A stretch of DNA of 64,000 bases from Parvularculaceae bacterium (GTDB lineage Bacteria; Pseudomonadota; Alphaproteobacteria; Caulobacterales; Parvularculaceae): NCBI GenBank assembly GCA_021776435.1, contig JAJFFW010000041.1, forward strand, positions 6,351-70,350. The letters run 5' to 3'. The notes beneath the pieces were generated by a model that made no database searches, was not told the DNA's origin, and worked only from the letters and a program-made list of their open reading frames with translations. Both the position numbers and the translations under genes were made by a program. Positions 30,613 through 47,111 of this stretch are shown here, one piece after another; positions within the stretch are counted from its first letter, which is position 1; each line of letters opens with the position of its first letter.

Positions 30613-30678
30613 TGCTCCATGCCTCCGATGCGCGCGCGACCGTCGTACTCATTGATGCGGCCGCTAAAATAAACGTCT

Positions 30679-32193
30679 TTAAAAAATCACTTCCAGATTG
30701 GCCCGCAACACGAATGGCGGTGCTGGACCGAGGTCGGGCTCGATAACCCGAATGAGGCCGGACACGGTCATGCGAATTTGCGGATCCGGGCTGAAGATCA
30801 ATGAGGGGGCGACCATGCCGGTGAAGCCCCCCGAAAAGGAGGGTCTGTCGACGACGTCGAACACAAAAGCCTCGTCTCCGATCATCCCGCAGCCGCCGAC
30901 GGCGCCGGCGACGTCGACCGCGTCGCAGACGTGGATTTCCGGTTCCGGAATCTTGCCGGCATAGGAATCGTTTTGCTTATCGAACCCGACAAAGGTCAGA
31001 TCCATGGCCACAAAATCTTTGTAGATCGGCTTGACGAAGGATGCGAAATACGTGGTCGTGTCACCAAAATCGATACCGTCTTCTTCCTGTACGAATTTAT
31101 GGATCACGCCGATATGCCCGGCGCTGCGGCCCAGGAAGCTGTTGGGAGCGAACTGTCGAGTGAGGAATCCGCCGGTCAGGAAGCTAAAGTCGCCGGTGCC
31201 CGGCTGCAGGGTTGAAGGCAGGCGTCCATCGGCTGAGAAGCGACCAAAAATGCCGTCATTGAATGGAAAATCACCAATGAAGGCGTTGTCGAAATTCGCG
31301 CCGCCCGGAGCGAATGACAACGGCCCGGCAGACGGCGCGCCGAAAGCCCCGCCGTCGCCCATGGCCGGTCCATCACATAGCGCTCGATTGCCGAGATTGA
31401 AATTGTGAAAGAAGCATCTGGGATCGCCCCACACGCCCATATCCACATTCGCCTTCATGACCGCATCGAAACCCTGCGCCGCGATCGTGTTCGGAGGTTG
31501 CGGCCGTTTCGTCGTGACCCGTCCGTTCGAGCCAAAGGTCTCGTCATTGGCGCCGGTCGGAAAGAAGACGGCGCCGACAACGGCGAGGCCGAACGGATGA
31601 TTGCCCTGATCCCACACTTTTTTCTTGAGGAACACGCCGACGTCGCCGATCTCCTGCGTGCTGCCTGCGTTCTCTATGCTAATGAATTGTTGACCATTGG
31701 GATGAATGAAACCGTCAACGCTTGAACTCAGATAAGGCACGTTAACGCGGAGCGTGAAACCGTGAAGATACTTTCTGTTCAGGTCGAAACCATAGAGAAA
31801 ATCAAAATCGGTCAGATTGCGCTCGACTGTGGAATCTCCGAAGACGGCGAGGTTGGGAGATCCATTGCGAAAGAAGTCGTCGCCCTCGATACGCGTGTAA
31901 CGGTGGGTTAGTCCGACCGACACGGCGCCGGGGGGGAGAACGAAGGCATGCTGCGTAAAGGCAGGGCGCAAAAGCGGCGGAATAAAGGTCAGGATTTGCG
32001 TCTTGATCTGATTGCGCTCGAAGGCTTTTTGCTCTTCGCCTCCCAGCACGCCTTGCTCCGTACCCAATTCTAAATAGCGATCCGCTGCTGTGGGTTTATC
32101 TTTGTCCACATCTTCTTGAGCTTGGGCGCCGCCGCCCGCTGCAATCGAAAGAAGAAAAGCAAGACTTGCTCCGCTCCGGAGGAAATATTTCAT
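30679..32193 (-). CDS. outer-membrane beta-barrel protein (MetA-pathway/FapF-type transporter family-like)
   Basis: Signal peptide '...LLSIAAGGGAQAQ'. 'AVVGAVFFPTGAND' motif, alternating beta-strand pattern, C-terminal 'LEVIF'. No CXXCH. Confidence 0.7.
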   Translation of the reverse strand: MKYFLRSGASLAFLLSIAAGGGAQAQEDVDKDKPTAADRYLELGTEQGVLGGEEQKAFERNQIKTQILTFIPPLLRPAFTQHAFVLPPGAVSVGLTHRYTRIEGDDFFRNGSPNLAVFGDSTVERNLTDFDFLYGFDLNRKYLHGFTLRVNVPYLSSSVDGFIHPNGQQFISIENAGSTQEIGDVGVFLKKKVWDQGNHPFGLAVVGAVFFPTGANDETFGSNGRVTTKRPQPPNTIAAQGFDAVMKANVDMGVWGDPRCFFHNFNLGNRALCDGPAMGDGGAFGAPSAGPLSFAPGGANFDNAFIGDFPFNDGIFGRFSADGRLPSTLQPGTGDFSFLTGGFLTRQFAPNSFLGRSAGHIGVIHKFVQEEDGIDFGDTTTYFASFVKPIYKDFVAMDLTFVGFDKQNDSYAGKIPEPEIHVCDAVDVAGAVGGCGMIGDEAFVFDVVDRPSFSGGFTGMVAPSLIFSPDPQIRMTVSGLIRVIEPDLGPAPPFVLRANLEVIF

Positions 32194-32244
32194 ACCAAAG
32201 CCCCCTTTTGGGAAAATTATTAACCAAAATCTATTTCGTCATAC

Positions 32245-32259
32245 GCAACTGGCGTGCCA
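32245..32259 (-). promoter_or_regulatory. sigma54 (-24/-12) promoter
   Basis: The minus strand reads cTGGCACGCCAGTTGCg, an exact TGGCAC-N5-TTGC, 52 nt upstream of the ATG at 32193. Confidence 0.7.
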
Positions 32260-32384
32260 GACGCTCACGAACTCGTGATATCGTCTTGTGTTTTGTTTTT
32301 GTTGATAGATTTTGAAATCTGCAAGATTCTCCGTACTGACGATGCTGATTGGAGGTGAACAAAATTATCAATTTTTCGAATTCA

Positions 32385-32401
32385 TTGAACGAATGATTCA
32401 A
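32385..32401. promoter_or_regulatory. 17-bp palindrome, candidate enhancer (bEBP) site
   Basis: TTGAACGAATGATTCAA. 15/17 identical to the site at 38063-38079. About 130 nt upstream of the sigma54 promoter. Confidence 0.5.
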
Positions 32402-32425
32402 CCTCCCGCCATCGAGCTGGGCGCG

Positions 32426-34795
32426 TCACTTTCGGCGACGAGCCCGACGAATGACAACCAAACCTGTTCCAAACACTAGGAATGCAATGAATAACGGCAG
32501 ACCACGAGTTTTCATTGGGTCTTCCGGAGCGGGCAAGACCAACCAGTACCAGGGCGTCAGGGTGTGTTTGGAGGCGATTTCCCCATTGCTGCCATTCCAG
32601 TTGGCGAACGAAATCGGAATGAATTCACCTTCATTAAAGGAAACATCGCGCGGATCTTCAGCCTGACGGCTGCGCGACATCATGACGCGCCAGCGGCCAT
32701 ACTGCCATTCTCCACTTGCGGTTACGGATTGATCATCGCTGCGCGGATGAAGCCTTTGATCGTCGCCGACACCATCTAAAATCGTGATCTTCGGCTCGAT
32801 AACAGGATCTGCGCTACCGGCGTTCCAGTACCAGATGGCAGTTGGATGCGACTTATCACCATGTCGGAAGAATGGCTTTTCGACCGTTGGTCCAGTCTGG
32901 AATGAACCCGCCGTGGGAAGCTGGATGGCCAGAGCATCGGAGAAGAGTTGCAAAGTACGGTCTTGCGTCGCCAGCGCATCCGCGTCGCCCGGCCGACTGA
33001 GCGTGCGGTCGTCTAACTCCAGCAGGATAGCGATGTCATCATCATTGTAGAGCAATCGCACTGTCAGAGCGTCGGAGAGCGGCTTGAAAAGCCTTTCCCC
33101 TTTCATGATGTTGGCGAGAAGCATCAGCGTTGTCGGTTTTGCGGAGGCCCAGACCTCGTCATTGACGTTATCGGGGAGGGGGCCATCGATTCTGACACCC
33201 TGAATCGTTCGTTCACGGCTAACTGGAGTTGTGTAGTTTCGTAGCGTGTAGACATAGTTGGCGATATGCCAACGGTCCTCTTCGTCGATCTTATCCTCAT
33301 GAGCTGGCATTGGCGTGCCTGGAATGCCGACCGATAGCCGTGTGAAAATATTGCGGATTGTCCCTTCGGTATCTTCGGCAATTTCCGTGACACGCCAGGT
33401 CCATGGTTTGGTGAGGTCGCGCGGCCAGATGCGGTTTCCCCATTCGTCTTTGAGTCGCTTATCGACGGATGGGTTGCCTCGACCATCCGTTCCGTGACAG
33501 ATCGAACAAGTTTTTTCAAATAGATTTTTCCCCAATGCAACAGAGTCTTCCGTAAACGGAACGGGATTTTCGGCCGTACTCCGTTCGATAACGCTAAGGG
33601 GTTTGTTCTTGTAGCGTCCTTCGTCGTCGAAATCGGCATCAGGCGCGTCCGCAGGCGCCCATGTCCCGACGAGGTCAAACCCCTTGACGACCTTGATTAG
33701 TTCCCGGATTTGAGCGTCGCTTAGAACGCTTTCCCATGCCGGCATCGCGGTTCCTGGCAGACCCGTTTTGATGGTGTGAAAGAGATCCTCGTCAGAAGGG
33801 GGATTCGTTTTGAACGGGGACGTTTTATATTTGAACATCCCGATTGTGAAATCACGAGGCGCCGGATACACAAATTCGGCGGCGGGTCCGTCACCCGCCC
33901 CATCTTCACCGTGGCATACGGCGCAATGCAGTTCGTAAAGATCGCGACCGTGCAGGTTTTGGCGTTCATTCTCGATCGTGTCTTTCATTGACGTCACCGC
34001 TTTGGAGACGTCTTGATTCCACATTCTCGGCACTTGCCCCACATGGTCGTAAAGGAAGGTGATGACGCTCCAAACTTCTTCCTCGCTCAACACGTCTTTC
34101 CAAACGGGCATTGCTGAGTTCCATGGAGCGCCTTCTTTTGGCAACCCAGGACCGCCGGTGGTGATGCGCCAGAACAAATAGGCTTCTTGCAACTGCGCGA
34201 TCGTTCCGACATCACGGAAATTAGCGGGTGGCGGATTCAGCCCTGGCGCAAATATACCGTGCCCATCGAGAAGGTCGCCATGGCAGAAAAAACAATTTGT
34301 ATAATAGATATCAGATCCCTTCTCCACGGTCCGTTGATAATTTGTGGCGGCGGCGTCTGGGTCCGTTTTGAATGTTTCGAGGATTTCGTTGCGGAGGGGG
34401 TTTTCCAACGAAGTGAGATCGAAGGTCTTGTCATAGGCCTGCAATTGGCGTGGAGGGGCCGGGTGGACCTGTCGCAATTCGACCGGCGCAATGAGGGATT
34501 GTTTGACAACAGAGAATGCAATCAACCCCGCTAGACCCGTCGCTAATCCAAGGAACGCCCACCGAATTGGCCATTTTCCCTTGTCCTCGAGTGTGGATTT
34601 GATCGGCGCTTTGAACTCAGCCCACCTGCTGTCGTCGAATGAATAAAAGAGCAACACACCCACTGCGATGATGATCATATACTGGGCGAGTACGGATTTT
34701 GGCATGACTGGAGGAAAGGCATTGTCGAGAATAAGATAAGCAACGACAAGAACGAGTACGGCCTGCAGTAGGGCGGGTATTTTGAATCTCTTCAT
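32426..34795 (-). CDS. membrane-bound triheme cytochrome c fused to a DOMON/EB_dh-like haem-binding domain
   Basis: 789 aa. N-terminal TM helices. Three CXXCH sites (CFFCH, CAVCH, CSICH). The C-terminal about 220 aa ('DALAIQLP...FRHGD...AIWYWNAG...GRWRVMMSRSR...ISFANWNGSNGEIASKHTLTPWYWL') follow the pattern of the ethylbenzene-dehydrogenase/NarI-type-II gamma-subunit domain. C-terminal TM 'LPLFIAFLVFGTGLVVI'. Confidence 0.8.
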   Translation of the reverse strand: MKRFKIPALLQAVLVLVVAYLILDNAFPPVMPKSVLAQYMIIIAVGVLLFYSFDDSRWAEFKAPIKSTLEDKGKWPIRWAFLGLATGLAGLIAFSVVKQSLIAPVELRQVHPAPPRQLQAYDKTFDLTSLENPLRNEILETFKTDPDAAATNYQRTVEKGSDIYYTNCFFCHGDLLDGHGIFAPGLNPPPANFRDVGTIAQLQEAYLFWRITTGGPGLPKEGAPWNSAMPVWKDVLSEEEVWSVITFLYDHVGQVPRMWNQDVSKAVTSMKDTIENERQNLHGRDLYELHCAVCHGEDGAGDGPAAEFVYPAPRDFTIGMFKYKTSPFKTNPPSDEDLFHTIKTGLPGTAMPAWESVLSDAQIRELIKVVKGFDLVGTWAPADAPDADFDDEGRYKNKPLSVIERSTAENPVPFTEDSVALGKNLFEKTCSICHGTDGRGNPSVDKRLKDEWGNRIWPRDLTKPWTWRVTEIAEDTEGTIRNIFTRLSVGIPGTPMPAHEDKIDEEDRWHIANYVYTLRNYTTPVSRERTIQGVRIDGPLPDNVNDEVWASAKPTTLMLLANIMKGERLFKPLSDALTVRLLYNDDDIAILLELDDRTLSRPGDADALATQDRTLQLFSDALAIQLPTAGSFQTGPTVEKPFFRHGDKSHPTAIWYWNAGSADPVIEPKITILDGVGDDQRLHPRSDDQSVTASGEWQYGRWRVMMSRSRQAEDPRDVSFNEGEFIPISFANWNGSNGEIASKHTLTPWYWLVLPAPEDPMKTRGLPLFIAFLVFGTGLVVIRRARRRK

Positions 34796-34802
34796 GGCGC
34801 CT

Positions 34803-35630
34803 TCAACCGTTCTGGCTTTCGAGAAATTTCACGATGGCCTCGAGTTCTTTGATCGTCAGTTCATCTACGAAGTAATCGGGCATCATCGGCTCGTAACCAT
34901 CGGCAATCACCGACATCGGATCGATGATGCTCTGGCGGATCTGTTCAGTGGTCAGGCGCGCCCCCACAGTTCTAAGATCGGGACCGATATCCACCTCGCT
35001 GTCGAGAATGCTGTGGCAGGCTGTGCAACCGTAATTCATCAAAAGGTCTGCGGCGGTCGCCGTCTCGCCAGAAACCGCAGGCTCAGCGGCGGAATCATTT
35101 GCAGGTTCCGGCGCCGGTTCGAGCCGGGCGGTCGGCAGAGCGACTGTCACATCGTGCCCGTCCTTGGATTCAAGAAACGCAATGATTGCGTCCATTTCCA
35201 TCTGAGATAGCTGAATCGGCGCTTGGTTGACCGGTGGCATGGGCGATATCTGGTCATCGGTGCCTTTCTTGCCAAAGCCCGGCACGACATAGGCGCTTGG
35301 TTCCGTCATCGATTCCCGAATATAGCTGGCAGCATCGACCGCATCTCCTTCATAGCCCTCAGCGGAGATCCGCGATGCAGAGGTGTCGACGACGTTTAAG
35401 GCCAGGAGGTCAGGCGCCCGCCCCATATTGTTGTGACATAACGCGCAAGTCCCTTTTCCTGTGAAAAGCTTTTCTCCCAATCGGGTGAAATCCGCCATCG
35501 TCAGTGAGCTGACGTCGATTGTTGTTTCCTCCGGCGGCTCGCCCTGCACTTGCGGCAAAAGGTTAGCGACCCCGGTGAAGACCAGAGTGAGGAGAAGGCT
35601 GAACCCCGCGACTTTTCCCAACACCCGCAT
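34803..35630 (-). CDS. diheme c-type cytochrome
   Basis: 275 aa. N-terminal anchor or signal. CALCH and CTACH. Start overlaps the upstream stop (TGATG). Confidence 0.85.
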   Translation of the reverse strand: MRVLGKVAGFSLLLTLVFTGVANLLPQVQGEPPEETTIDVSSLTMADFTRLGEKLFTGKGTCALCHNNMGRAPDLLALNVVDTSASRISAEGYEGDAVDAASYIRESMTEPSAYVVPGFGKKGTDDQISPMPPVNQAPIQLSQMEMDAIIAFLESKDGHDVTVALPTARLEPAPEPANDSAAEPAVSGETATAADLLMNYGCTACHSILDSEVDIGPDLRTVGARLTTEQIRQSIIDPMSVIADGYEPMMPDYFVDELTIKELEAIVKFLESQNG

Positions 35631-37486
35631 CAGCTTTGCTCAACATATGGTTTGCGTGTCTCGCCGAGCGACGCAAGCCAGAAAATGAATAGCACCATGA
35701 GTAAGAATAGCACTGTCACGATTGTCATCATGTTGCCCGCATAACCGATCGTCGGAATAAAATTATCAGGTGAGGCGTCCTTAAGAACACCATAAACGTG
35801 CCAGTGTCCGCGGACAGATGACCGGACATACCCCATCAACGCCATCAACCAGGTGAATGCTACCGGCAAAGCAAACAATGCGTATTGCGAGCGTTCGCTA
35901 ACTTGCCCCCAACGTGAGGGTAAAATCTTTGCGTTCCGATACATGAAAGAGTCGAGGATGACGCCGCTGATGATGACGAACAGTGTCGAGACCACCTGGA
36001 TCACGCTCGCTCCCACTTTGTAAACCGTGTTGGTGAAGTAGCCGTAATAAACGCCAGCGAAAATAACGTTGATAATCGCCACCAGATAGATCGCTGTCAT
36101 CAAGGCGTTGCCTGATTTTTCCCACGACACCGTCGCCACCTTGTCTGACCGCCTATAGAGCTGAAAAGAGAGGAAGGTGCAGATGAGCATCAAGTTCACG
36201 GCGATGTTCTTGGCGGGCATGATGCCTAGCGGTCCGAGAATATGATGGTGGCTGCCGCCGAGTGTGGCGATTTCGTCGGAAGACAAAATGAGCGTGTGCG
36301 GAGTGACCCAGACCAGAAAGCCCAGAACCAACACTCCCGCGATGTATTTGATAATCCAGTCGTATCGCTTCGAACCTTCCGAGCGCGACATGCCCGACCA
36401 CAGATAATAATTGGCGGCCAGCAAAATTGTACCGATCAAAACCGCCTGAACGATGAATAGCCAGGCGAGAATTCCGCCCATCGCGGTGATCCCCATCTGC
36501 TGTGAATACGCGTAAATTTCGGCCATCAACCAATACCCAGCGAAGGGCAGAGGCAGGAGCGCCAGAACAGCAATGAAATTGGCTGTGTAGCCCATCCAGT
36601 CGTAATGGGCTTTGTCCGCCTTCGTCGTTGAACTTAAAAATTTAAAAGCCGCATAAGCGCCCACCATTGCCCCGCCGAAGGCGATGTTGGCGATGAACCG
36701 ATGCAAATTGAGCGGGTTCCACAAGGGGCCCCTCATGATTTCCCAGATTCCGCCGGTCACGACACCAGCCTCGGTGACGCCGCTCGGCGCCATGGTGAAG
36801 GTGGCCCAGGAATTGGCGATGAAAAGCAAGCTCGTCCCAACGGCGTTGAGCAGTAGACCGAGCGTTAAATGGAGCCATTTGCCGTTGCCTGAGCTGAGGC
36901 GGCGCCAACTGTAGTAATAGATGTAAAGTAGCGTGCTCTCGGCAAAGAAAAGACCTGCATAGACTAACACCTGCGATCCAAAAACGCGCATTAAGAAGGC
37001 CATGAATCCGGGATAGAGAAGGAAGAGAACAAAAGACAGCGTGCCGCCTAAAAGCGCCGTTATGGAATAGGCGGTCAGGCTGATCTTCATGAACTCGTGC
37101 GCCATGTCGTCATATCGTCGATCGTGAGTGGTTTGCCCGATCCATTCGATGACGACGACAAAGAGTGGTACAGCGAGAACAAAGGCTGCGAAGAACAGAT
37201 GCAGTTGCGCCACCACCCATACGACCGATCGACTACTAACACCAATGTTCGGATAATCTCTCGGGCCAAGCTTCGGGGCGCCGACACTTTCCTCTGTCAC
37301 CGGAGGTGAGGTCAGATCTTGATCTGTGATGCCGGACGAGATCAACGTATCACTCGCCTGAGCCTCGACAGACCCCGCAGCCACTGCGGCTAGCAGAAAA
37401 ATTGCAAGCACAGCCCAAAACCGAAGACCGGGACGTGTCAAGCCTGTGCGCCACGTTGGCATTAATTTCTCCTTGAACATCATCAT
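35630..37486 (-). CDS. cytochrome bd-like oxidase subunit I (CydA) homolog, extended, without Q-loop
   Basis: Many TM helices (I estimate about 14). CydA-like motifs 'VAQLHLFFAAF' (His19-type), 'FFAESTLLYIYYYSW' (Glu99/Glu107 region), 'IANSWATFTMAPSG' (compare 'ANGWMQNP'), 'NPLNLHRFIANIAFGG'. Only a short loop where CydA has the Q-loop. No cydB nearby. First ATG at 37486; the ORF track begins at a TTG at 37489. Confidence 0.75.
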   Translation of the reverse strand: MMMFKEKLMPTWRTGLTRPGLRFWAVLAIFLLAAVAAGSVEAQASDTLISSGITDQDLTSPPVTEESVGAPKLGPRDYPNIGVSSRSVVWVVAQLHLFFAAFVLAVPLFVVVIEWIGQTTHDRRYDDMAHEFMKISLTAYSITALLGGTLSFVLFLLYPGFMAFLMRVFGSQVLVYAGLFFAESTLLYIYYYSWRRLSSGNGKWLHLTLGLLLNAVGTSLLFIANSWATFTMAPSGVTEAGVVTGGIWEIMRGPLWNPLNLHRFIANIAFGGAMVGAYAAFKFLSSTTKADKAHYDWMGYTANFIAVLALLPLPFAGYWLMAEIYAYSQQMGITAMGGILAWLFIVQAVLIGTILLAANYYLWSGMSRSEGSKRYDWIIKYIAGVLVLGFLVWVTPHTLILSSDEIATLGGSHHHILGPLGIMPAKNIAVNLMLICTFLSFQLYRRSDKVATVSWEKSGNALMTAIYLVAIINVIFAGVYYGYFTNTVYKVGASVIQVVSTLFVIISGVILDSFMYRNAKILPSRWGQVSERSQYALFALPVAFTWLMALMGYVRSSVRGHWHVYGVLKDASPDNFIPTIGYAGNMMTIVTVLFLLMVLFIFWLASLGETRKPYVEQS

Positions 37487-37617
37487 CAAGCTGGTTGTAA
37501 GATCCAGTTGAGTGGCAATCCCTGGCCTGCCATTATCGCTTGATCAATCGCGTAGAAAACTGCGGCGGTGGCCGTCAAGACAACGATCCAGATTATCAGT
37601 GAGCGACGCTCCTTCAT
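37486..37617 (-). CDS. 43-aa single-TM micro-protein, translationally coupled to the bd-like gene
   Basis: My own translation: MKERRSLIIWIVVLTATAAVFYAIDQAIMAGQGLPLNWILQPA. AAGGGA SD upstream. Its TGA stop overlaps the bd-like ATG (TGATG). Below the ORF-track size cut-off. Confidence 0.5.
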   Translation of the reverse strand: MKERRSLIIWIVVLTATAAVFYAIDQAIMAGQGLPLNWILQPA

Positions 37618-37640
37618 GGCCTATCATATCCCTTAGCTGG

Positions 37641-37814
37641 TTACGTTACGTGCGGAGCCACGCCGTGCGGGAAGATTGTCAGCCACCAGAAGAAGGCCAT
37701 AACTGCTATCAGCGCGCCGCCGAACAGCCATGGACCGGTGCGGTCTCCCTTAACATTTGGCTCATCCGCTCGATCTTCCGACCCATGCGATGATCTTTCC
37801 ATTTCCGGCGGCAT
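37641..37814 (-). CDS. 57-aa single-TM micro-protein, first gene of the minus-strand operon
   Basis: My own translation: MPPEMERSSHGSEDRADEPNVKGDRTGPWLFGGALIAVMAFFWWLTIFPHGVAPHVT. Lies 23 nt upstream of the next ORF. Confidence 0.45.
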   Translation of the reverse strand: MPPEMERSSHGSEDRADEPNVKGDRTGPWLFGGALIAVMAFFWWLTIFPHGVAPHVT

Positions 37815-37984
37815 AGCGGCTCCCTTTTCAATTTCTAACTGGGTATTCGATCAAATTTCAGCGATCGATCGAGCTTCCTCTTTTTTACCCCGCCAACGCT
37901 CTGTAAACGGCCGACATATCTGCATTGACCAGCTTGGATCGCGGTGGTTGAGACGGTTTTCCGGCGATGTTGAGCGATCTATTA

Positions 37985-37999
37985 GCAACTTCCAGGCCA
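37985..37999 (-). promoter_or_regulatory. candidate sigma54 promoter (minus strand)
   Basis: The minus strand reads cTGGCCTGGAAGTTGCt. GG and GC have the correct 12-nt register. About 170 nt upstream of the ATG at 37814. Confidence 0.5.
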
Positions 38000-38062
38000 G
38001 ATGATTGATAAGCGAAAATTGATGATTTTGATGCGTTCGAGCGCCGTCGCTATTGAATGCAA

Positions 38063-38079
38063 TTGAATGAATTATTCAA
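38063..38079. promoter_or_regulatory. 17-bp palindrome, candidate enhancer (bEBP) site shared by divergent promoters
   Basis: TTGAATGAATTATTCAA (extends to ATTGAAT-N5-ATTCAAT). An extra half-site TTGAAT lies at 38053-38058. Confidence 0.5.
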
Positions 38080-38205
38080 TTTCTGGGTAGGGCGTCGATA
38101 CATTGAACGAACTATTCCCACACGACACTTTGCGCCTTGTTCCAACTGGCGGATAAAACCTTGAGTCTGGAGCGCCAGGATGCGGCGGCAGAGGCAATGT
38201 TGGGT

Positions 38206-38220
38206 TGGCACGATTACTGC
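38206..38220 (+). promoter_or_regulatory. candidate sigma54 promoter (plus strand)
   Basis: tTGGCACGATTACTGCt. TGGCAC is exact and the -12 element is CTGC. Confidence 0.55.
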
Positions 38221-38357
38221 TCAAAGAGCCATGAAAAAAGAGCCGTGAAGACTGATCTAAGAGCGCCGACCTGCCAAACAAGCCAAGAGAATTCGACTTC
38301 ACAATGTTCGGCGCAAAGCCGGTAAGAGTTTTCGTTTCCTCGTTAGAAGAACCAAAC

Positions 38358-38501
38358 ATGAGCCAAATAGCCGAGAGTCAAATTGAACAACGACGCTCAA
38401 CGTGGCGTAACAAACTCTTTGATCTTTTTATCCTTTCGGGCCTGACAATGAATCTCATCGTTATTGGATGGCTCGTTGGATACTGGGTCCTGCACATATG
38501 A
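38358..38501 (+). CDS. 47-aa single-TM micro-protein
   Basis: MSQIAESQIEQRRSTWRNKLFDLFILSGLTMNLIVIGWLVGYWVLHI. Internal ATG of the 65-aa ORF-track entry. First ORF after the plus-strand sigma54 promoter. Confidence 0.4.
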   Translation: MSQIAESQIEQRRSTWRNKLFDLFILSGLTMNLIVIGWLVGYWVLHI

Positions 38502-38545
38502 TGGCTGCTGAAATCCGAATTCGAAATAAAAGTGAGACCTAAGCG

Positions 38546-40738
38546 ATGGCTCAACCTTTAGAGAACGAAGCAAGTGCCCTTGGAAAAGATGAGAAGGGCG
38601 GAAAACTCGACCTTCCCTCATATGCTTCGGTCTTGGTCGCCGTCGATGCTTCTGACCACGCCAATCGAGCGACCGTAGAGGCGGCGGCGATTGCCAAGGC
38701 ATTTGACGCTCGCATGACGGCGACTCACGTCTATGCAGCGAAACTTCATGATCTGCGGTTTCGGCAGATGGAGGGTGGGCTTCCCGAACAGTTCCGCGAG
38801 GAGAGCGAATTGGAGCGTCAACGGGATGTCCATGACGATCTTATCACCCGCGGACTCTCGATCATCACGGACTCTTATCTCGATCACGCCGCGCGTGTCT
38901 GTGAGCAAACCGGGGTCAACTTTGAGCGTCGGTCACTCGAAGGCAAGAATTATCGAGCTTTGGTCGCAGAGACGAACTCAGGTGATTATGATCTTTTAAT
39001 CATCGGCTCTTTAGGGTTGGGTGCGGTGCCTGGAAATACACTGGGGTCAGTCTGCGATCGAGTGGCGCGCCGAACTAATATCGACACACTGGTGATCAAA
39101 GATACGATCCGTCCGCTCGCCGATGGACCGATCGTTGTCGCCATTGACGGATCGTCTCGTGCTTATGGCGGTCTCATGACAGCGCTTGCTCTGGCTGAAT
39201 GCTGGCGTGTTCCAGTCGAGGTGATTGCCGCCTTCGATCCCTATTATCATTATGTCGCCTTCAACCGTATCGCCGGCGTGTTGTCCGAAGAAGCGGGCAA
39301 GGTGTTTCGCTTTGAAGAGCAAGAACAGCTGCACGAGGAGATCATCGATTCCGGTCTCGCCAAAATCTATCAGGGCCATCTGAGCGTCGCCCGCCAGATT
39401 GCCGACGAGTATGACGTCCAATTGAAGACGACGCTTCTCGATGGCAAACCGCATGCCGCCATCGAAAAATATCTCACTAGGGCGAAACCTTCCCTCCTCG
39501 TGGTCGGTAAGGTGGGCATCCATGCTGATCCCGATCTCGACATCGGCGGTACGACAGAAAATTTGTTGCGCAATGCCGCCTGCTCGATTCTGCTCAGTCA
39601 ACGCGAACATAAGCCCCGCATCGACCTGATCGCGGCCGAAACCATTTCCTGGACCAAAGAGGCCGAACAAAGAATGGAAGCCGTGCCTTCTTTCGTTTCT
39701 TCGATGGCGAGAATGGCGATCTTGCGCTACGCGCAGGATAAAGGGCACACCGTGATCACCGAGCGGATCGTTGAGGAAGCCACCGCCAAGTTGATGCCGC
39801 ACCGCGCCGAAGAGACCATGCGCCAGATCGTCGAAGCCCACGATGATGGCAAACTTGATTCACTAAATCCCGAGATCGAGACGCCAGGCTGGTCGGATGA
39901 AGCGATTGGGCTCTTATCGGAAATCGAGAGCTCTTCGACACGGGACAATGTCGCCAAGCGAGCTGAGAAGAAGGCGCGCCAGCAAGGTCAGCCCATTGTC
40001 CTCGTGGCGCATGTTATGGACTTTCTAGAATCCTCTTATGTTGAAGTGGCGCCGTTGCATTGGACGGCTCCGGCGCTCGCACGCCTCATGAAAGTCCCCG
40101 CTGGTATAATGCGCGACGGCGTGAAGGCGCGGGTTGAGGACTATGCGCGGCGCGAAGACCTGCACGAGATTACTCTCCACATCACCGAAATCGGATTGAC
40201 CGAAGCGCGCAGTGAGATGGAAACGATGGCGGCGGGCAGCGCTTCGCAGTCAGCGACTGGAAGTTTTCCACAGAAAGCAAGTAAATGTCCGTTTGCGGAT
40301 AGTGTGCAAAATGACGAATTATCTGTGCCGCCCCCTGACGCTAATTTCGGCTCTGAATGGACCCCAGAAGCTAAAGCCCGCCTCAACGCCGTGCCGGTCG
40401 GATTCTGTAGAGACATGGTGGTGAAGGCGGCGGAAACCATAGGCGGCGTCAACGGCCTTTCGGAAATCGATTCCGAGTTTGTTAAGCAATTGCTTCGCAC
40501 ATTCCGAACTGGGGCGGAGGGCGTAAGCGAGGCTCTGCCTTGGGATGCAGATGCGAGGATTCGAGTCTCCCGAGCCCCGAAGATGGTCCGCGGTATGTTG
40601 ATTCGTGAGATCGAAAATTGGACCCGGCGTCACGGGCGCGACAGCGTCGATGAAGCGGCGGTGGACTCAGTCAAGGATCAATGGATGAAGCGCGGATTTT
40701 TTCATCTCGACCCCAGCGATCCGAGGAGCGGGCTCTAA
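38546..40738 (+). CDS. tandem universal-stress-protein (USP) domains fused to five PCP_red-like modules
   Basis: 730 aa. Two USP folds ('VLVAVDASDHANRA...LLIIGSLGLGAVPGNTLGSVCDRVARR', 'IVVAIDGSSRAY...LLVVGKVGIH...GGTTENLLRNAACSILL'). Then five modules of about 45 aa beginning 'W[TSD]xxA...(V/A)P' (for example 'WTKEAEQRMEAVPSFVSSMARMAILRYA'). Confidence 0.75.
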   Translation: MAQPLENEASALGKDEKGGKLDLPSYASVLVAVDASDHANRATVEAAAIAKAFDARMTATHVYAAKLHDLRFRQMEGGLPEQFREESELERQRDVHDDLITRGLSIITDSYLDHAARVCEQTGVNFERRSLEGKNYRALVAETNSGDYDLLIIGSLGLGAVPGNTLGSVCDRVARRTNIDTLVIKDTIRPLADGPIVVAIDGSSRAYGGLMTALALAECWRVPVEVIAAFDPYYHYVAFNRIAGVLSEEAGKVFRFEEQEQLHEEIIDSGLAKIYQGHLSVARQIADEYDVQLKTTLLDGKPHAAIEKYLTRAKPSLLVVGKVGIHADPDLDIGGTTENLLRNAACSILLSQREHKPRIDLIAAETISWTKEAEQRMEAVPSFVSSMARMAILRYAQDKGHTVITERIVEEATAKLMPHRAEETMRQIVEAHDDGKLDSLNPEIETPGWSDEAIGLLSEIESSSTRDNVAKRAEKKARQQGQPIVLVAHVMDFLESSYVEVAPLHWTAPALARLMKVPAGIMRDGVKARVEDYARREDLHEITLHITEIGLTEARSEMETMAAGSASQSATGSFPQKASKCPFADSVQNDELSVPPPDANFGSEWTPEAKARLNAVPVGFCRDMVVKAAETIGGVNGLSEIDSEFVKQLLRTFRTGAEGVSEALPWDADARIRVSRAPKMVRGMLIREIENWTRRHGRDSVDEAAVDSVKDQWMKRGFFHLDPSDPRSGL

Positions 40739-40773
40739 CCGACTTGACGCAACGAATGAAAGGCGGCCGGTCG

Positions 40774-42033
40774 ATGAACACATTGCTGTTACTGGCGATC
40801 AACCTGACACGACGTTGCAATCTGGCGTGTACGCACTGTTATCTGGATGCGGAGACGCTGAGCCGCGCTGCTCCAGACGAGTTGACGACGCAAGAAGTTT
40901 GCGACTTACTCGATGCGATCGCAAAGCGTGGTGATGAGACCATGGTCGTGCTGACCGGTGGCGAACCCCTCGTGCGCGCCGATCTGGAAACCCTAATTGG
41001 TCACGGCGCCAGACGCGGACTTGCCGTCGTCGTAGGAACCAACGGAACCCTCTTGACCGAGCGGCGTGTCTTGTCACTGAAGAAGGCTGGCGCGCTCGGC
41101 GTTGGCATCAGCCTCGACTCGCTCGACGCAGAAATTCACGACGACTTCAGGGGTAAGCCAGGGGCTTGGGAGAGAACCATGAGCGGGATCGAGGCCTGTC
41201 GTCGCCATGATCTGTCGTTTCAGATCCACTTCACGGTTACAGAGCGCACGGTCGGCGAGATTGATGCTATAATTGAATTCTCCAGGGGCGTCGGCGCCCG
41301 CGTGCTCAATGTCTTCTTCCTAATTTGTACCGGGCGCGCTGAGTCGATTTCCGACCTTGCACCGAAGCGCTACGAGGAAGTGCTCAGGCAGCTGATCGAG
41401 GCTCAAGAACACAACCCCGACCTCATCATTCGGCCGCGATGTGCGCCGCATTCAAAGCGCATCGCCCATCAAAGAGACCCAGACAGCCAGGTCAATCAAA
41501 TTAGCGGCAGGGACGGTGATGGTTGTATCGCTGCAACGCATTACTGCCGCATTACAGCAACGGGGGGTGTGACCGCATGTCCTTATATCGCCGAAGAGGC
41601 CGGTAATATTCGCACACGGCCATTCCTTGAAATCTGGGAACAGGCGCCGGAATTCGGTGCATTGCGCCAGCCGACATTGGAGGGCGCCTGCGGGGTTTGT
41701 GAATATAAGTTGTTGTGCGGTGGATGCCGGGCGCGGCCACAGGCAGCGGGTGAGGGTCTGATGGGCGCTGATAATCTGTGCACCTATTCGCCTCGCGGTG
41801 CAGCGGTAATCGAACCCTTGGCTGATCAAGTTCTGGCCAAAATCACCTGGAGCACGGACGCCGCCGGGCGGTTGTCGAATGTGCCGTCATTCTTGCGCGG
41901 CCTTGTTCGCCGGCGGGCCGAGGCTTATGTCGCGGGTCGTGGAGAATCGCAGGTGACGATCGAACATTTGTCGGAATTGACCGCTCGGCGCTTTGGCGCC
42001 GGCGGCCCGCGCAATCCGGGAGCCCGGATATGA
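40774..42033 (+). CDS. radical SAM/SPASM enzyme, AhbD/NirJ-like (tetrapyrrole-modifying family), with C-terminal PCP_red-like module
   Basis: 'LTRRCNLACTHCY' (CX3CX2C), 'VLTGGEPL', SPASM Cys cluster 'CPYI...ACGVCEYKLLCGGCRARP'. C-terminal 'WSTDAAGRLSNVPSFLRGLVRRRAEAYV'. Alternative ATG at 40756; the ORF-track start at 40681 overlaps the upstream gene. Confidence 0.75.
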   Translation: MNTLLLLAINLTRRCNLACTHCYLDAETLSRAAPDELTTQEVCDLLDAIAKRGDETMVVLTGGEPLVRADLETLIGHGARRGLAVVVGTNGTLLTERRVLSLKKAGALGVGISLDSLDAEIHDDFRGKPGAWERTMSGIEACRRHDLSFQIHFTVTERTVGEIDAIIEFSRGVGARVLNVFFLICTGRAESISDLAPKRYEEVLRQLIEAQEHNPDLIIRPRCAPHSKRIAHQRDPDSQVNQISGRDGDGCIAATHYCRITATGGVTACPYIAEEAGNIRTRPFLEIWEQAPEFGALRQPTLEGACGVCEYKLLCGGCRARPQAAGEGLMGADNLCTYSPRGAAVIEPLADQVLAKITWSTDAAGRLSNVPSFLRGLVRRRAEAYVAGRGESQVTIEHLSELTARRFGAGGPRNPGARI

Positions 42034-43484
42034 GCGATATCGATGTTCTCGTTATCGGCGGCGGCATCTCCGGCCTCGCCACGGCATGGCGCCTTGCACG
42101 CCGGGGAATATCCGTAGAAGTCTGGGATCGCGAGAAACGGCCGGGCGGCAAAATCTCAAGCGCTCGTCAGGACGGTTATGTCACCGAGCGGGCGGCCTCC
42201 ATGGTGATGAATTTCCGGCCAGAGATAACGCACTTTCTTGGCGAGTCGGGTGTCGATATTCATAAAGTGCGCTGTACACCAACGAAAAAACGTTATCTCG
42301 TCAACGCCGGCAGACTTGGGGCAATCCCGAACACGATCGGCGCCGCCCTCATGCGCGCCCCTTTTAGTCGACGAGGGCGCGCGCGGCTAATGCTCGAACC
42401 ATTCATCCCTAAGGGCGGCCATGAGAGCGAGACTGTCAGCGCCTTCGTTCGCCGGCGTTTCGGGAACGAACTTTTGGAAGGTGCGATGGATTCGTTCGTA
42501 GCCGGAACGCTTGCCTCTGATCCGGACCATGCCTGCGCTCGGGCTGTGCTTCCGCGCCTGACGGCGCTCGAAAATCGCTACGGCAGTATAGCGCTTGGCG
42601 TCATTGCGAAAAAACTTTTGCGGCGTCGCTCGGCGATGCCCAACGAGGCCTTCTCTTTCGCTGGAGGAATGGGCACACTGGTTGAGTCTTTGGCGGCGAT
42701 TCCCGGCGTCGGTTTCCGGCCAGGTAGAACCGTTACGAAGCTGATTCGTGAGCAAAATGGCTGGCGGGTCGAAGCCAGCTCTTCGGATGGTGATATCGCA
42801 TTCAGTGCACGAACTGTCGTTTTATGCACGCCGGCCAAAGTCGCGGCGCGATTAGTCGGGTCCGTCGATGCGGACCTGCAAGGAATGTTGGCCGGCATCG
42901 ATTATGCGCCGCTCTCCGTTGTTCATTTAGGGTTTTCCAAATCGGACATTCGTCATCCGCTTGATGGCGCCGGTTTTTTGGCGCCGCGAAGGGAAGGGTT
43001 GGCCATCAACGGCTGTCTCTGGCCGAGTTCGCTGTTTTCTGGTCGCGCGCCCGCGGGTAGAGTATTGTTGAGTTGTTATCTCGGGGGCGCGCGAAACCCA
43101 GCGGCGGCGTCCTGGGACGATCGTAGGAGTATCGACGCAGTTCTGTCTTCTATCGTCCCCTTGCTCGACATCCGCGGAACCTCTGAAACGGTTCGCATCG
43201 ACCGCCATCGGGAAGCTCTGCCCCTCTATCACGGCCGTTACCTCGCTCATATGCGGGACATTGATCGACGGCTGGCGGATCATCCGGGTCTCCACCTTGA
43301 GGCCAATTACAAAGGAGGCGTCTCTGTCCGGGATCGCATCCTATGCGCCTACAAGGCTGCGGACCGAATTGAGGCCGATCTCGGAACGTCGGCGAAAAGC
43401 ACATGTTATCGTTTGGCGCCGGGTGACAGTCGATATTCAACATTCACCGGCAGTGCACATGCTGTATTTATGGATGGAGCTTGA
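42030..43484 (+). CDS. FAD-dependent protoporphyrinogen/coproporphyrinogen oxidase-like (HemY/CgoX family)
   Basis: 'IDVLVIGGGISGLATAWRL' dinucleotide fold, 'GGKISS...DGYVTERAA', C-terminal 'EALPLYHGRY...HPGLHLEANYKGGVSVRDRI'. ATGA overlap with the radical SAM gene. Confidence 0.7.
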   Translation: MSDIDVLVIGGGISGLATAWRLARRGISVEVWDREKRPGGKISSARQDGYVTERAASMVMNFRPEITHFLGESGVDIHKVRCTPTKKRYLVNAGRLGAIPNTIGAALMRAPFSRRGRARLMLEPFIPKGGHESETVSAFVRRRFGNELLEGAMDSFVAGTLASDPDHACARAVLPRLTALENRYGSIALGVIAKKLLRRRSAMPNEAFSFAGGMGTLVESLAAIPGVGFRPGRTVTKLIREQNGWRVEASSSDGDIAFSARTVVLCTPAKVAARLVGSVDADLQGMLAGIDYAPLSVVHLGFSKSDIRHPLDGAGFLAPRREGLAINGCLWPSSLFSGRAPAGRVLLSCYLGGARNPAAASWDDRRSIDAVLSSIVPLLDIRGTSETVRIDRHREALPLYHGRYLAHMRDIDRRLADHPGLHLEANYKGGVSVRDRILCAYKAADRIEADLGTSAKSTCYRLAPGDSRYSTFTGSAHAVFMDGA

Positions 43485-43491
43485 GGCTATC

Positions 43492-43836
43492 ATGTCGGAA
43501 GCTGGACCCGATAGAGTGCAAGAAGATTACTCACCGTCTGTGCGATTTAAGCCGTTACGGGTGATTATCGCTGTATTGGCCGCTACGCTTGCGGTGTCTG
43601 CTTACGCGAACTGGTATTCAGAGGAGGTATCGCTGCCGCGATATTGCGAGGATCCGGAGCAAAGCCTTCGCCTCTTGGAGAGCGTTATGACACAAGAACG
43701 CCCAGCGGGTGAGGAGAGTCGGCGACCTTATTTGATCGCCGCGAAACTTTTGTATCTGATCCCGCAAGAGGAGAGTGAATCTCTTTCCGCCTATCAAGCA
43801 CGCCTCCGTCAAGAACTGGTCAGCCGATGCCAATGA
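43492..43836 (+). CDS. 114-aa membrane-anchored hypothetical protein
   Basis: 'MSEAGPDRV...LRVIIAVLAATLAVSAYANWY'. Its 3' end overlaps the kinase gene start by 10 nt (43827-43836). The longer ORF-track version overlaps the upstream gene. Confidence 0.45.
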   Translation: MSEAGPDRVQEDYSPSVRFKPLRVIIAVLAATLAVSAYANWYSEEVSLPRYCEDPEQSLRLLESVMTQERPAGEESRRPYLIAAKLLYLIPQEESESLSAYQARLRQELVSRCQ

Positions 43837-45677
43837 ACCCTATGAGCGACGCCAATAAAGAGTCCCCTTGGGCGAATGTGACCATGTTCGCCATGATCAT
43901 CGGGATCGCGGTGATGATGCTTATGGGCGGGATGGCGGCGCATCTTTGGTGGACCGCTGGTGCGGCGACGCCTTCTGGTGACAGACCCGATGCCTTATTC
44001 AACGCCCTCAAACGGTTCGCCCCATTTTACGGCTTTACATTGATCTTGGTAGTAGCGCTGTCCGGTATGCTGGCGCATGCGATAGTCAAATGCTCTGAGG
44101 CGGAAAGCCGTATTGCCTTTGAGCGTCGCTTCCGAGAAACCCTCGGCGGCATCGGGTTGATGACCTTGGGCCTGGATGCGCAGGGCAAGATCACCGATTG
44201 CAACGACGTTTTTCTCCGTCTCGTCGGCCAAGGCATGAATGAGGTCTTCGGGTGCGACTGGATCGAATCCTTCGTCCCTGCCGTTGAACAACTCGAAACC
44301 AAGGCGGCGTTCTTGAAGGCGGCGTCGGGGCCGGCCCCGCATAAACATTATCAGTGCAAGATCGAGACCCGGTTGGGTCGCGAGCACATTATCTCCTGGG
44401 GCGTTTGGTCATTGCACGATCCGCTGAAAAAAACGGTCGGCTACACCTGTATCGGTCAGGATATTACAGAAGCCGACGAAATGAAGGAGCAATTGCGCAA
44501 GCTTTCCCACGCAGTAGAGCAAAGCCCGAGTGTGGTGATGATCGTCAATCTCGAGCAAAAGATCGAATATGTGAACCCCAAATTCACAGAGGCGACCGGT
44601 TACACTCTCGAGGAAATGCGCGGGAAGAACCCCCGTGTCCTGAAATCTGGGGAAACCAGCGCCGACGAATACAAGAATCTTTGGTCCACCGTCAAAGCAG
44701 GCGGTGAATGGCGCGGAGTGTTTCACAATCGTAAAAAGAGCGGCGAGTTGTTTTGGGAATCGGCGGTGATCTCGGCGCTGCGCGATGCTGACGGAGAAAT
44801 CACCCACTTTATTGCTGTCAAGGAAGACATCACGGAACGTGTGCGGCTGGAACACGAAGTTGCCGAGCGCAATCGCGAAATAGCCAAAAACCAGACCATG
44901 GCGGCAATCGGAAAAGTTGCGACGATGCTGGCGCACGACCTGCGTAATCCCTTGTCGTCGGTCAAGATGGGGTTGCAAATGTTATCCAAGAAACCGTCGC
45001 CCGAATGGGGCGAGGCCGAACAGGAACTACAGCAAATTGCGCTCCAGCAACTTCAATATACTGAGGAAATTTTGCAAAACCTGTTGAGTTATTCCCGTCC
45101 CGACGCCCTTCGGCTGGAGTGGCTCAACATCGGCAAGCTTCTCGACGTCGCCGTCTTCATCGCACATCGCGAGGTCGATGGACGTCTGGTCAAGATCACC
45201 ACCTGTCATCAGCACGGATTGCCGACGCTTTACGGAGACCCCGGAAAATTGAAACAAATGTTTTCGAACATCATCAACAATGCGGTCGAGGCGACCAAAG
45301 ATGTTGTCGGGCGCAAGCCGGAAGTCTTGATTTCGACCAATGTTGAGGTGATCGACGATGCGCCATGGATATTGGTGGAGATCAGCGATAATGGTGTCGG
45401 CATCGAATCGGGGACAAGTGACCAGCTGTTCGAGCCGTTCTTCACGACGCGGGCGAAGGGCACTGGCCTTGGCCTCGCAATTGTCAAACGCATCGTCGAT
45501 CAGCACCGCGGCTCTGTGCGTATGCAACGCGGATCACAATGTGGCACCGCAGTACGGATTCTGCTGCCGACGACCGCCGTTTTAGAAGACGTGGATCAGG
45601 GGTCCTCTGCGGTTGAACAATCGAGCCCTCCAATATTAGCGTCAATGGAATCGCATCATGATGGTGATATGTCATGA
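43827..45677 (+). CDS. PAS-domain sensor histidine kinase (NtrB/AtoS-like)
   Basis: Two N-terminal TM helices, two PAS domains, H-box 'LAHDLRNPLSS', N-box 'NIINNAVEA', G-boxes 'DNGVGI' and 'GTGLGLAIV'. Confidence 0.88.
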   Translation: MPMNPMSDANKESPWANVTMFAMIIGIAVMMLMGGMAAHLWWTAGAATPSGDRPDALFNALKRFAPFYGFTLILVVALSGMLAHAIVKCSEAESRIAFERRFRETLGGIGLMTLGLDAQGKITDCNDVFLRLVGQGMNEVFGCDWIESFVPAVEQLETKAAFLKAASGPAPHKHYQCKIETRLGREHIISWGVWSLHDPLKKTVGYTCIGQDITEADEMKEQLRKLSHAVEQSPSVVMIVNLEQKIEYVNPKFTEATGYTLEEMRGKNPRVLKSGETSADEYKNLWSTVKAGGEWRGVFHNRKKSGELFWESAVISALRDADGEITHFIAVKEDITERVRLEHEVAERNREIAKNQTMAAIGKVATMLAHDLRNPLSSVKMGLQMLSKKPSPEWGEAEQELQQIALQQLQYTEEILQNLLSYSRPDALRLEWLNIGKLLDVAVFIAHREVDGRLVKITTCHQHGLPTLYGDPGKLKQMFSNIINNAVEATKDVVGRKPEVLISTNVEVIDDAPWILVEISDNGVGIESGTSDQLFEPFFTTRAKGTGLGLAIVKRIVDQHRGSVRMQRGSQCGTAVRILLPTTAVLEDVDQGSSAVEQSSPPILASMESHHDGDMS

Positions 45678-47059: not shown

Positions 47060-47111
47060 AAAACGCAATCTTGGCGTTTTATGTATGCGAGTTTTTGTGT
47101 CAGTTGATTCT

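Follow-up and report, generated by a model that had tools for sequence, protein, structure and literature searches.

The region at positions 37985-38220 of the DNA analysed here, a stretch of 64,000 nucleotides from a bacterium of the Parvularculaceae (the window), separates two operons that point away from each other. One encodes a bd-like oxidase module with c-type cytochromes; the other encodes haem-tailoring enzymes followed by a sensor kinase and an NtrC-class regulator. Candidate sigma-54 promoters face outwards at either end of the region and palindromic sequences lie between them. This arrangement raises the question of whether the two operons are activated together from shared sites, and by the very regulator that one of them encodes. 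Overall, we consider it likely that 37985-38220 is a bidirectional, enhancer-dependent control region and that the kinase-regulator pair acts through three sites, UAS1 to UAS3, on three operons.

Promoters and putative enhancer sites of the intergenic region

The promoter facing the cydA-like operon, P(bd), occupies positions 37985-37999 on the minus strand (TGGCCTGGAAGTTGC), with its GG at 37998-37997 and its GC at 37986-37985 as read from the sequence. The promoter facing the haem-tailoring operon, P(haem), lies at 38206-38220 on the plus strand (TGGCACGATTACTGC). The GG-N10-GC register claimed for both in the original prediction is present in TGGCCTGGAAGTTGC and TGGCACGATTACTGC alike, and every sequence quoted in that prediction was recovered at its position. 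Transcription from sigma-54 promoters starts approximately 12 nt downstream of the GC; the predicted starts are at ∼37973 for P(bd) and ∼38232 for P(haem). We scored promoters by their match to TGGCACG-N4-TTGCW, for which the maximum is 15. The core of P(bd), TGGCCTGGAAGTTGCT, scored 13/15 and that of P(haem), TGGCACGATTACTGCT, scored 14/15, which places both within the 200 best-scoring sites of the genome. Both combine GG-N10-GC with flanks resembling TGGCAC-N5-TTGCW, as is characteristic of sigma-54 promoters. Moreover, both are intergenic and correctly oriented, and both are conserved at orthologous loci, as described below.

Enhancer-binding proteins act from inverted repeats, usually two or more, located ∼70-200 bp upstream of the −24 element and functioning independently of orientation. 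Two inverted repeats at suitable distances from the −24 elements lie between P(bd) and P(haem). UAS1, at 38063-38079 (centre 38071), is a palindrome with perfect arms, TTGAATGAATTATTCAA. UAS2, at 38103-38119, is a degenerate copy, TTGAACGAACTATTCCC, with three mismatches and one good arm only. The two are 40 bp apart, centre to centre. Measured from its centre, UAS1 is 73.5 bp away from the GG of P(bd) and 136.5 bp away from that of P(haem); UAS2 is 113.5 and 96.5 bp away, respectively. A further copy, UAS3 (TTGAACGAATGATTCAA), lies outside the region at 32385-32401. UAS1 had been reported to be 15/17 identical to this site, and it is: the two differ at positions 6 and 11 and have the central GAAT in common. 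The original prediction placed a single operator between the divergent promoters. The shared layout is backed by phylogenetic footprinting in ∼60 loci, but the window contains two sites, at 38063 and 38103, rather than one.

Other candidate elements of the region fared less well in comparison with L004, a locus from the same genus. The proposed half-site TTGAAT at 38053-38058 is present in the window but not conserved in the L004 alignment, and we rejected it as an element. Similarly, the three TTGAT direct repeats (38005-38032) can be read at 38005-38009, 38019-38023 and 38028-38032, but all three are changed in L004, in which the T-tract TTTTTCGCTT is the sole part of this stretch to be kept. 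The repeats are probably no conserved element, and we did not retain them as a demonstrable one. We also searched for a convincing IHF site between the UAS and the promoters of 37985-38220 and found none. The best matches to the WATCAANNNNTTR consensus, at 37998-38010 and 38154-38166, each have one mismatch, are poorly placed and are not conserved in L004 or L006; an IHF site was accordingly rejected as a demonstrable element. The distance between UAS1 and the −24 element of P(bd), ∼74 bp, is short for looping without a bend.

Conservation across related loci

In the genome collection, 412 relatives of the CydA-like protein were found, and the comparison used the best 80 of these 412 loci. Most of the 80 are from sulfur-oxidizing Gammaproteobacteria (Sedimenticola, Thiodiazotropha and relatives of Beggiatoa/Thiomargarita), together with a few Alphaproteobacteria. 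The cydA-like gene was present in only one of 60 genomes from the same family and order. The cluster is therefore patchily distributed, and the comparison had to rely on distant Proteobacteria.

In the related loci, the palindrome has the consensus TTGAAC-RAWTY-GTTCAA. Its density between −1100 and −250 relative to the cydA-like gene is 2.01 per kb, versus 0.091 per kb elsewhere in the 80 loci, which amounts to a 22-fold enrichment upstream of the cydA-like operon among the best 80 of the 412 loci. Of the 70 loci with enough upstream sequence to be eligible, 59 contain one or more sites and 45 contain two or more. The palindromes usually occur in two or three copies, the spacings peaking at 41 and 59 bp with 41 bp the commonest. 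A degenerate second site at 40-42 bp is the rule across loci. UAS1 is conserved in the alphaproteobacterial alignment, and UAS2 has a counterpart at the same position in L004, 41 bp from the first site. The presence of the palindrome follows that of the divergent operon: where the upstream sequence extends for 6.5 kb or more, a site was found in 45 of the 47 loci that have the divergent operon versus none of the three that do not.

The promoters are conserved with their orientation. Counting promoters that scored at least 12.5/15, a −24/−12 element on the correct strand was found in 87% of loci towards the cydA-like gene and in 88% in the divergent direction, although the loci share ancestry and these percentages overstate the number of independent observations. 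On the wrong strand, the corresponding values were 3% on the cydA-like side and 0% on the divergent side; random pieces yielded 6%. Promoters on the bd side belong to the class TGGC-N7-TTGCT and often read TGGCCTGG-N3-TTGCT, exactly as in the window; this form is identical or nearly so in L004, L011-L017, L025 and L032. Divergent promoters belong to the class TGG(C/T)A-N6-(C/T)TGC, the majority having CTGC at −12, an unusual form that P(haem) shares.

Two Burkholderiales genomes were reached through the regulator, independently of the cydA-like search. In both, the cydA-like operon diverges from an operon comprising the Usp/PCP_red, oxidase, kinase and regulator genes, and the arrangement is compact and GC-rich. 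Two palindromes 42-43 bp apart lie between the divergent operons, with TGGTCCG(G/A)ATGTTGC(T/A) on one flank and TGGCACG-N4-CTGC on the opposite one. The counterpart of P(bd) in these genomes reads TGGTCCGGATGTTGCT. The promoter/enhancer pattern thus spans three proteobacterial classes, the Alpha-, Beta- and Gammaproteobacteria, in ∼60 loci. Together, these data support the view that the elements are real and that, judged by their sequences, they form a typical enhancer-dependent pair of divergent sigma-54 promoters conserved in dozens of Proteobacteria.

A more modest reading is that the architecture is only partly functional, with P(bd) or UAS2 inactive and the operons not truly co-activated from one enhancer. 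P(bd) does have a non-canonical TGGCCT −24 element and the lower score of the pair (13/15), UAS2 keeps a single good arm, and UAS1 is close to P(bd). These apparent defects are nevertheless the common condition: TGGCCTGG-N3-TTGCT is the majority form on the bd side in many loci, and a degenerate second site at 40-42 bp is found across loci. We therefore regard partial function as improbable, and favour a region in which both promoters and both sites participate.

Predicted target operons

Operon 1 (32426-37814, minus strand) is the predicted target of P(bd), and its gene order is conserved in the 80 loci compared, the best 80 of 412. It begins with genes for membrane proteins of 57 and 43 aa, followed by those for the CydA-like protein (619 aa) and a cytochrome c (275 aa). 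The last gene encodes a 789-aa fusion of a tri-haem cytochrome c to an EB_dh haem-b domain. A copy of the cydA-like gene from the same genus (G001:C70:9610-11454, locus L003) was reported with one in-frame TAA stop, which may reflect a pseudogene, an error in sequencing or the edge of the alignment. In the Burkholderiales (L093:1-6181 and L095:1-4750), the cydA-like operon encodes two cytochromes c followed by a ∼1177-aa molybdopterin enzyme. This enzyme replaces the tri-haem/EB_dh fusion, which indicates that the bd-like core is combined with different redox partners while the regulator stays the same.

Operon 2 (38358-47059, plus strand) is the predicted target of P(haem), and its synteny is likewise conserved. 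Its genes, which overlap or are at most 45 bp apart, encode in order a 47-aa membrane protein, a Usp/PCP_red protein, a radical SAM/SPASM enzyme nearest to NirJ2 and AhbD, a flavoprotein resembling protoporphyrinogen oxidase (HemY-like), a small membrane protein, the kinase and the regulator. The micro-proteins that open operons 1 and 2 (57 and 43 aa, 37486-37814, minus strand; 47 aa, 38358-38501, plus strand) are single-pass proteins with translated matches in many related loci; for this reason, all three are probably real genes. In Gammaproteobacteria, the divergent operon starts with genes for a 794-aa HEAT-repeat (PBS-lyase-like) protein and a 272-aa beta-sandwich protein, located before the Usp/PCP_red gene. 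These two genes occur in 60 loci in all (e.g., L034:5728-8984, minus strand); neither the window nor the Burkholderiales versions have them.

A third promoter unit accompanies UAS3. P3, a sigma-54 promoter at 32245-32259 on the minus strand (TGGCACGCCAGTTGC), scored 14.5/15, the joint best in the genome, and UAS3 is 135.5 bp upstream of its GG. P3 precedes operon 3 (27832-32193, minus strand), a predicted target comprising genes for a 504-aa protein without a family match and a 926-aa protein with a cytochrome c domain at its end. Counterparts of P3 are conserved in L004 and L006, the only loci with homologues of operon 3. A second zone of palindrome enrichment in the related loci lies directly after the cytochrome c/EB_dh gene, 5.0-6.5 kb downstream of the start of the cydA-like gene, and each palindrome there is followed 84-135 bp on by a sigma-54 promoter. 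This unit is conserved in ∼30 loci.

What lies behind the third unit differs between lineages. In Gammaproteobacteria, it precedes genes for two di-haem cytochrome c peroxidases, a Rieske protein and a molybdoenzyme of the AioA/IdrA type, a content that matches idrABP1P2 (idrP1P2BA-like; cf. PMC10149662, PMC8692401). Such Idr-like genes were found behind the third unit at L081:15870-21587 and at 28 other gammaproteobacterial loci. This gene content suggests that many sulfur oxidizers regulate Idr-like genes together with the bd-like module. A search of the window's genome for Idr-like genes returned none.

The kinase-regulator pair and its predicted sites in the genome

The original prediction had an activator of the NtrC family at the end of the plus-strand operon, and the domain content, GAFTGA motif and location of the last gene of operon 2 bear this out. 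The regulator (45674-47059, plus strand) has a REC, an AAA+ and an HTH_8 region, corresponding to the Pfam domains Response_reg, Sigma54_activat, AAA_lid_14 and HTH_8. It carries the phospho-acceptor Asp52, a Walker A motif (GESGTGKE), the sequence EKGAFTGA and a Walker B motif (LDEVGE). With the Asp, both Walker motifs, GAFTGA and a C-terminal Fis-type helix-turn-helix, it has the defining features of an NtrC-class enhancer-binding protein.

Orthologues of the regulator share 56-63% identity and are clearly apart from the next paralogue. In nine of 10 genomes they adjoin the cluster, where they end the divergent operon, and the same position is found in the Burkholderiales. The search gave no orthologue in G070, a genome of the same genus whose contig ends inside the operon; this gap may reflect an incomplete assembly. 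Comparison with characterized families did not yield a name for the regulator. ZraR is among its best family and structure matches, and its homologues in a large protein database have generic names only. Its scores are below the NCBIfam equivalog cut-offs of AtoC (408 vs 714), NtrC (408 vs 559), ZraR (374 vs 760), NtrX (306 vs 600) and NorR (295 vs 476), and below that of GlrR as well. No NCBIfam equivalog cut-off was reached, and we therefore rejected its assignment to any named family tested, these six included.

The gene immediately 5′ of the regulator encodes a sensor histidine kinase (43827-45677, plus strand) with two N-terminal membrane helices, two cytoplasmic PAS domains, HisKA and HATPase. 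Orthologues of the kinase (41-56% identity) occupy this same position in nine genomes. The outer loop between the two membrane helices is very short. This topology, together with the cytoplasmic location of the PAS domains, makes an intracellular or membrane signal, such as redox state, oxygen or a cofactor, likelier than a periplasmic ligand. More specifically, the PAS domains suggest a redox- or oxygen-related cue.

These features are consistent with the following mechanism. The membrane-anchored double-PAS kinase would phosphorylate Asp52 of the regulator, dimers of which would occupy UAS1 and UAS2 and assemble an AAA+ ring. By DNA looping, the ring would reach the sigma-54 holoenzyme, and its GAFTGA loops would open both promoters. 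The same regulator would work from UAS3 on P3. The predicted regulon would accordingly comprise three operons: operon 1 with the cydA-like/cytochrome c genes, operon 2 with those for haem tailoring, the kinase and the regulator, and operon 3 with the 504-aa and 926-aa cytochrome pair. Since the kinase and regulator genes are the last of a tightly spaced plus-strand operon, activation of that operon should feed back positively. The layout of the operon thus suggests autoregulation by the regulator, as the original prediction had proposed. Basal expression of the kinase and regulator would require a weak constitutive promoter. Neither sigma-70 promoters nor terminators were enriched in 32150-47300, and a basal promoter for the two genes was not found there.

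That the regulator recognizes the UAS specifically is suggested by two observations: the sites co-occur with the regulator operon, and 10 orthologues share an unchanged recognition helix, ILG-SRPRL-R, while just 5% of the preceding linker is invariant. The genome (2.96 Mb in 142 contigs, ∼98.6% complete) also encodes the sigma factor, RpoN, as a 501-aa open frame on contig C35 (PF04552, 232 bits).

We then considered how specific the sites are to the cluster. In the whole 2.96-Mb genome, the degenerate 17-mer occurs only at 38063 and 32385. The genome-wide search proposed with the original prediction thus revealed no spread of unrelated copies. Allowing up to three mismatches, the window contains five copies versus 0.97 expected. 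We also scanned the genome with a position weight matrix built from 122 sites of other genomes, this genus being left out. UAS1 ranked first (23.9 bits), UAS3 fourth (22.2 bits) and UAS2 12th (16.3 bits). Among the top matches, UAS1, UAS2 and UAS3 are the only ones with a strong, correctly oriented sigma-54 promoter nearby; the remainder are intragenic and have no such promoter in their vicinity. On these grounds, we rejected C93:17005, C2:14731 and position 48669 of the window as extra regulon members. The last of these (48669-48685, TTGAACGATACGTTCCA, 21.5 bits) is located within a hybrid kinase gene (47112-49592) that adjoins the regulator gene. This match is probably due to chance, though its location is notable. 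In other carriers, consensus-like palindromes (e.g., TTGAATGAATCATTCAA and TTGAACAAATTGTTCAA) are likewise found beyond the stretches analysed around the cluster (G064:C16:5314, G062:C50:9665 and G062:C1:223631), and may represent further regulon members in those genomes.

The sigma-54 promoters could be real while the palindromes are bound by another factor, such as a global redox or oxygen regulator, with the cluster regulator binding elsewhere. The outer arms of the palindrome, TTGA...TCAA, faintly recall FNR/CRP-type boxes, the matrix finds comparably strong matches beyond the cluster in this genome, and in other genomes exact matches to the loose palindrome pattern likewise lie outside it. 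An FNR/CRP-type box is, however, a 14-bp sequence, TTGAT-N4-ATCAA, whereas the palindromes are 17 bp long with a 5-bp centre. Their placement, 60-200 bp upstream of −24/−12 elements and in pairs about four helical turns apart, is typical of enhancer-binding proteins, they co-occur with the regulator operon, and the NtrC-class regulator is the sole DNA-binding protein conserved in the cluster. Moreover, the out-of-cluster matches in this genome are intragenic, one of them merely encoding the FabH motif HQANERIIQ. We consider a different binding factor improbable, slightly more so than partial function of the architecture, and retain the cluster regulator as the probable ligand of UAS1-3. Finally, chance matches in an AT-rich spacer with no regulatory role can be dismissed with near certainty: the loose pattern TGGC-N8-TGC is indeed not rare on its own (19 in the window vs 10.8 expected), but the degenerate 17-mer is unique to two cluster sites in the genome, and the 22-fold enrichment with strand-specific promoters in ∼60 loci of three proteobacterial classes already refutes a fortuitous origin.

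Relation to known systems and biological meaning

The closest textbook parallels are in E. coli. In zraP/zraSR (hydHG), divergent sigma-54 promoters share sites for the NtrC-class regulator ZraR in a short intergenic region, and the zraSR operon encodes its own kinase and regulator, resulting in positive autoregulation. The locus described here resembles this system in the sites shared by divergent promoters and in having the kinase and regulator genes inside one of the controlled operons. It differs in the regulator, which at 374 bits is well short of the ZraR cut-off of 760 and hence is not ZraR, in the motif, in the double-PAS kinase with almost no periplasmic part, and in its respiratory and haem-related targets. 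In hyc/hyp-fhlA, activator sites lie between divergent sigma-54 operons, and fhlA, at the far end of one, is autoregulated by read-through; FhlA is a formate-binding sigma-54 activator without a receiver domain. The likeness is that the activator gene ends one of the activated divergent operons. By contrast, the regulator of the window is part of a two-component system and scores 260 bits versus the FhlA cut-off of 830, and the motif and targets are unrelated.

In terms of biological setting, the nearest parallel is the perchlorate island of Azospira suillum PS, in which PcrP, PcrS, PcrR and rpoN are required for expression of the neighbouring molybdoenzyme operon (PMC3884062). That operon has a conserved RpoN motif upstream, and the island is horizontally mobile (PMC3884062). 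Both cases place a sigma-54-dependent two-component system within an oxyanion-respiration gene cluster. The kinases differ: PcrS, which has a HAMP linker and a large periplasmic domain, depends on PcrP as a separate PAS protein (PMC3884062), whereas the kinase described here carries two cytoplasmic PAS domains of its own. No binding site for PcrR is described in PMC3884062.

By gene neighbourhood, the likeness is to Azoarcus sp. DN11, in which an atoS/atoC-like pair, a kinase and a sigma-54 regulator, adjoins the iodate-reductase genes. The pair, upstream of idrABP1P2, is merely noted, with no site, promoter or function described (PMC10149662). The window's genome differs in that it contains no Idr-like genes. 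In cultured bacteria, idr expression is induced by iodate and low oxygen, and the iodate literature that we searched names no characterized regulator. The paper cataloguing the bd-like oxidases contains nothing on their regulation. Neither the motif, nor regulation of the bd-like oxidase, nor a regulator of idr was described in the literature searched; the only related statements concern the atoS/atoC-like genes of Azoarcus DN11 and PcrPSR/RpoN. The type of switch is a textbook one, and what is new, in that it is absent from the literature searched, is the regulator family, the TTGAAC-RAWTY-GTTCAA motif and the regulon.

A broader proposal, which we advance tentatively and consider rather doubtful, is that the kinase-regulator pair and TTGAAC-N5-GTTCAA constitute a mobile regulon for the bd-like (OR-N2) oxidase, haem tailoring and the gammaproteobacterial Idr-like genes, and that the pair senses the cue behind the induction of idr by iodate and low oxygen. 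If so, the motif could predict the physiological role of the bd-like complex.

The regulon links a cydA-like protein wired to c-type cytochromes with NirJ2/AhbD-like and HemY-like enzymes and with the Idr-like genes of many marine sulfur oxidizers. A defined cis-code and a single regulator provide a practical handle on this poorly understood respiratory and haem-tailoring module. A constitutively active form of the regulator should switch on the whole module in a cultivable relative, and the inducing signal would then indicate what the bd-like complex respires or detoxifies.
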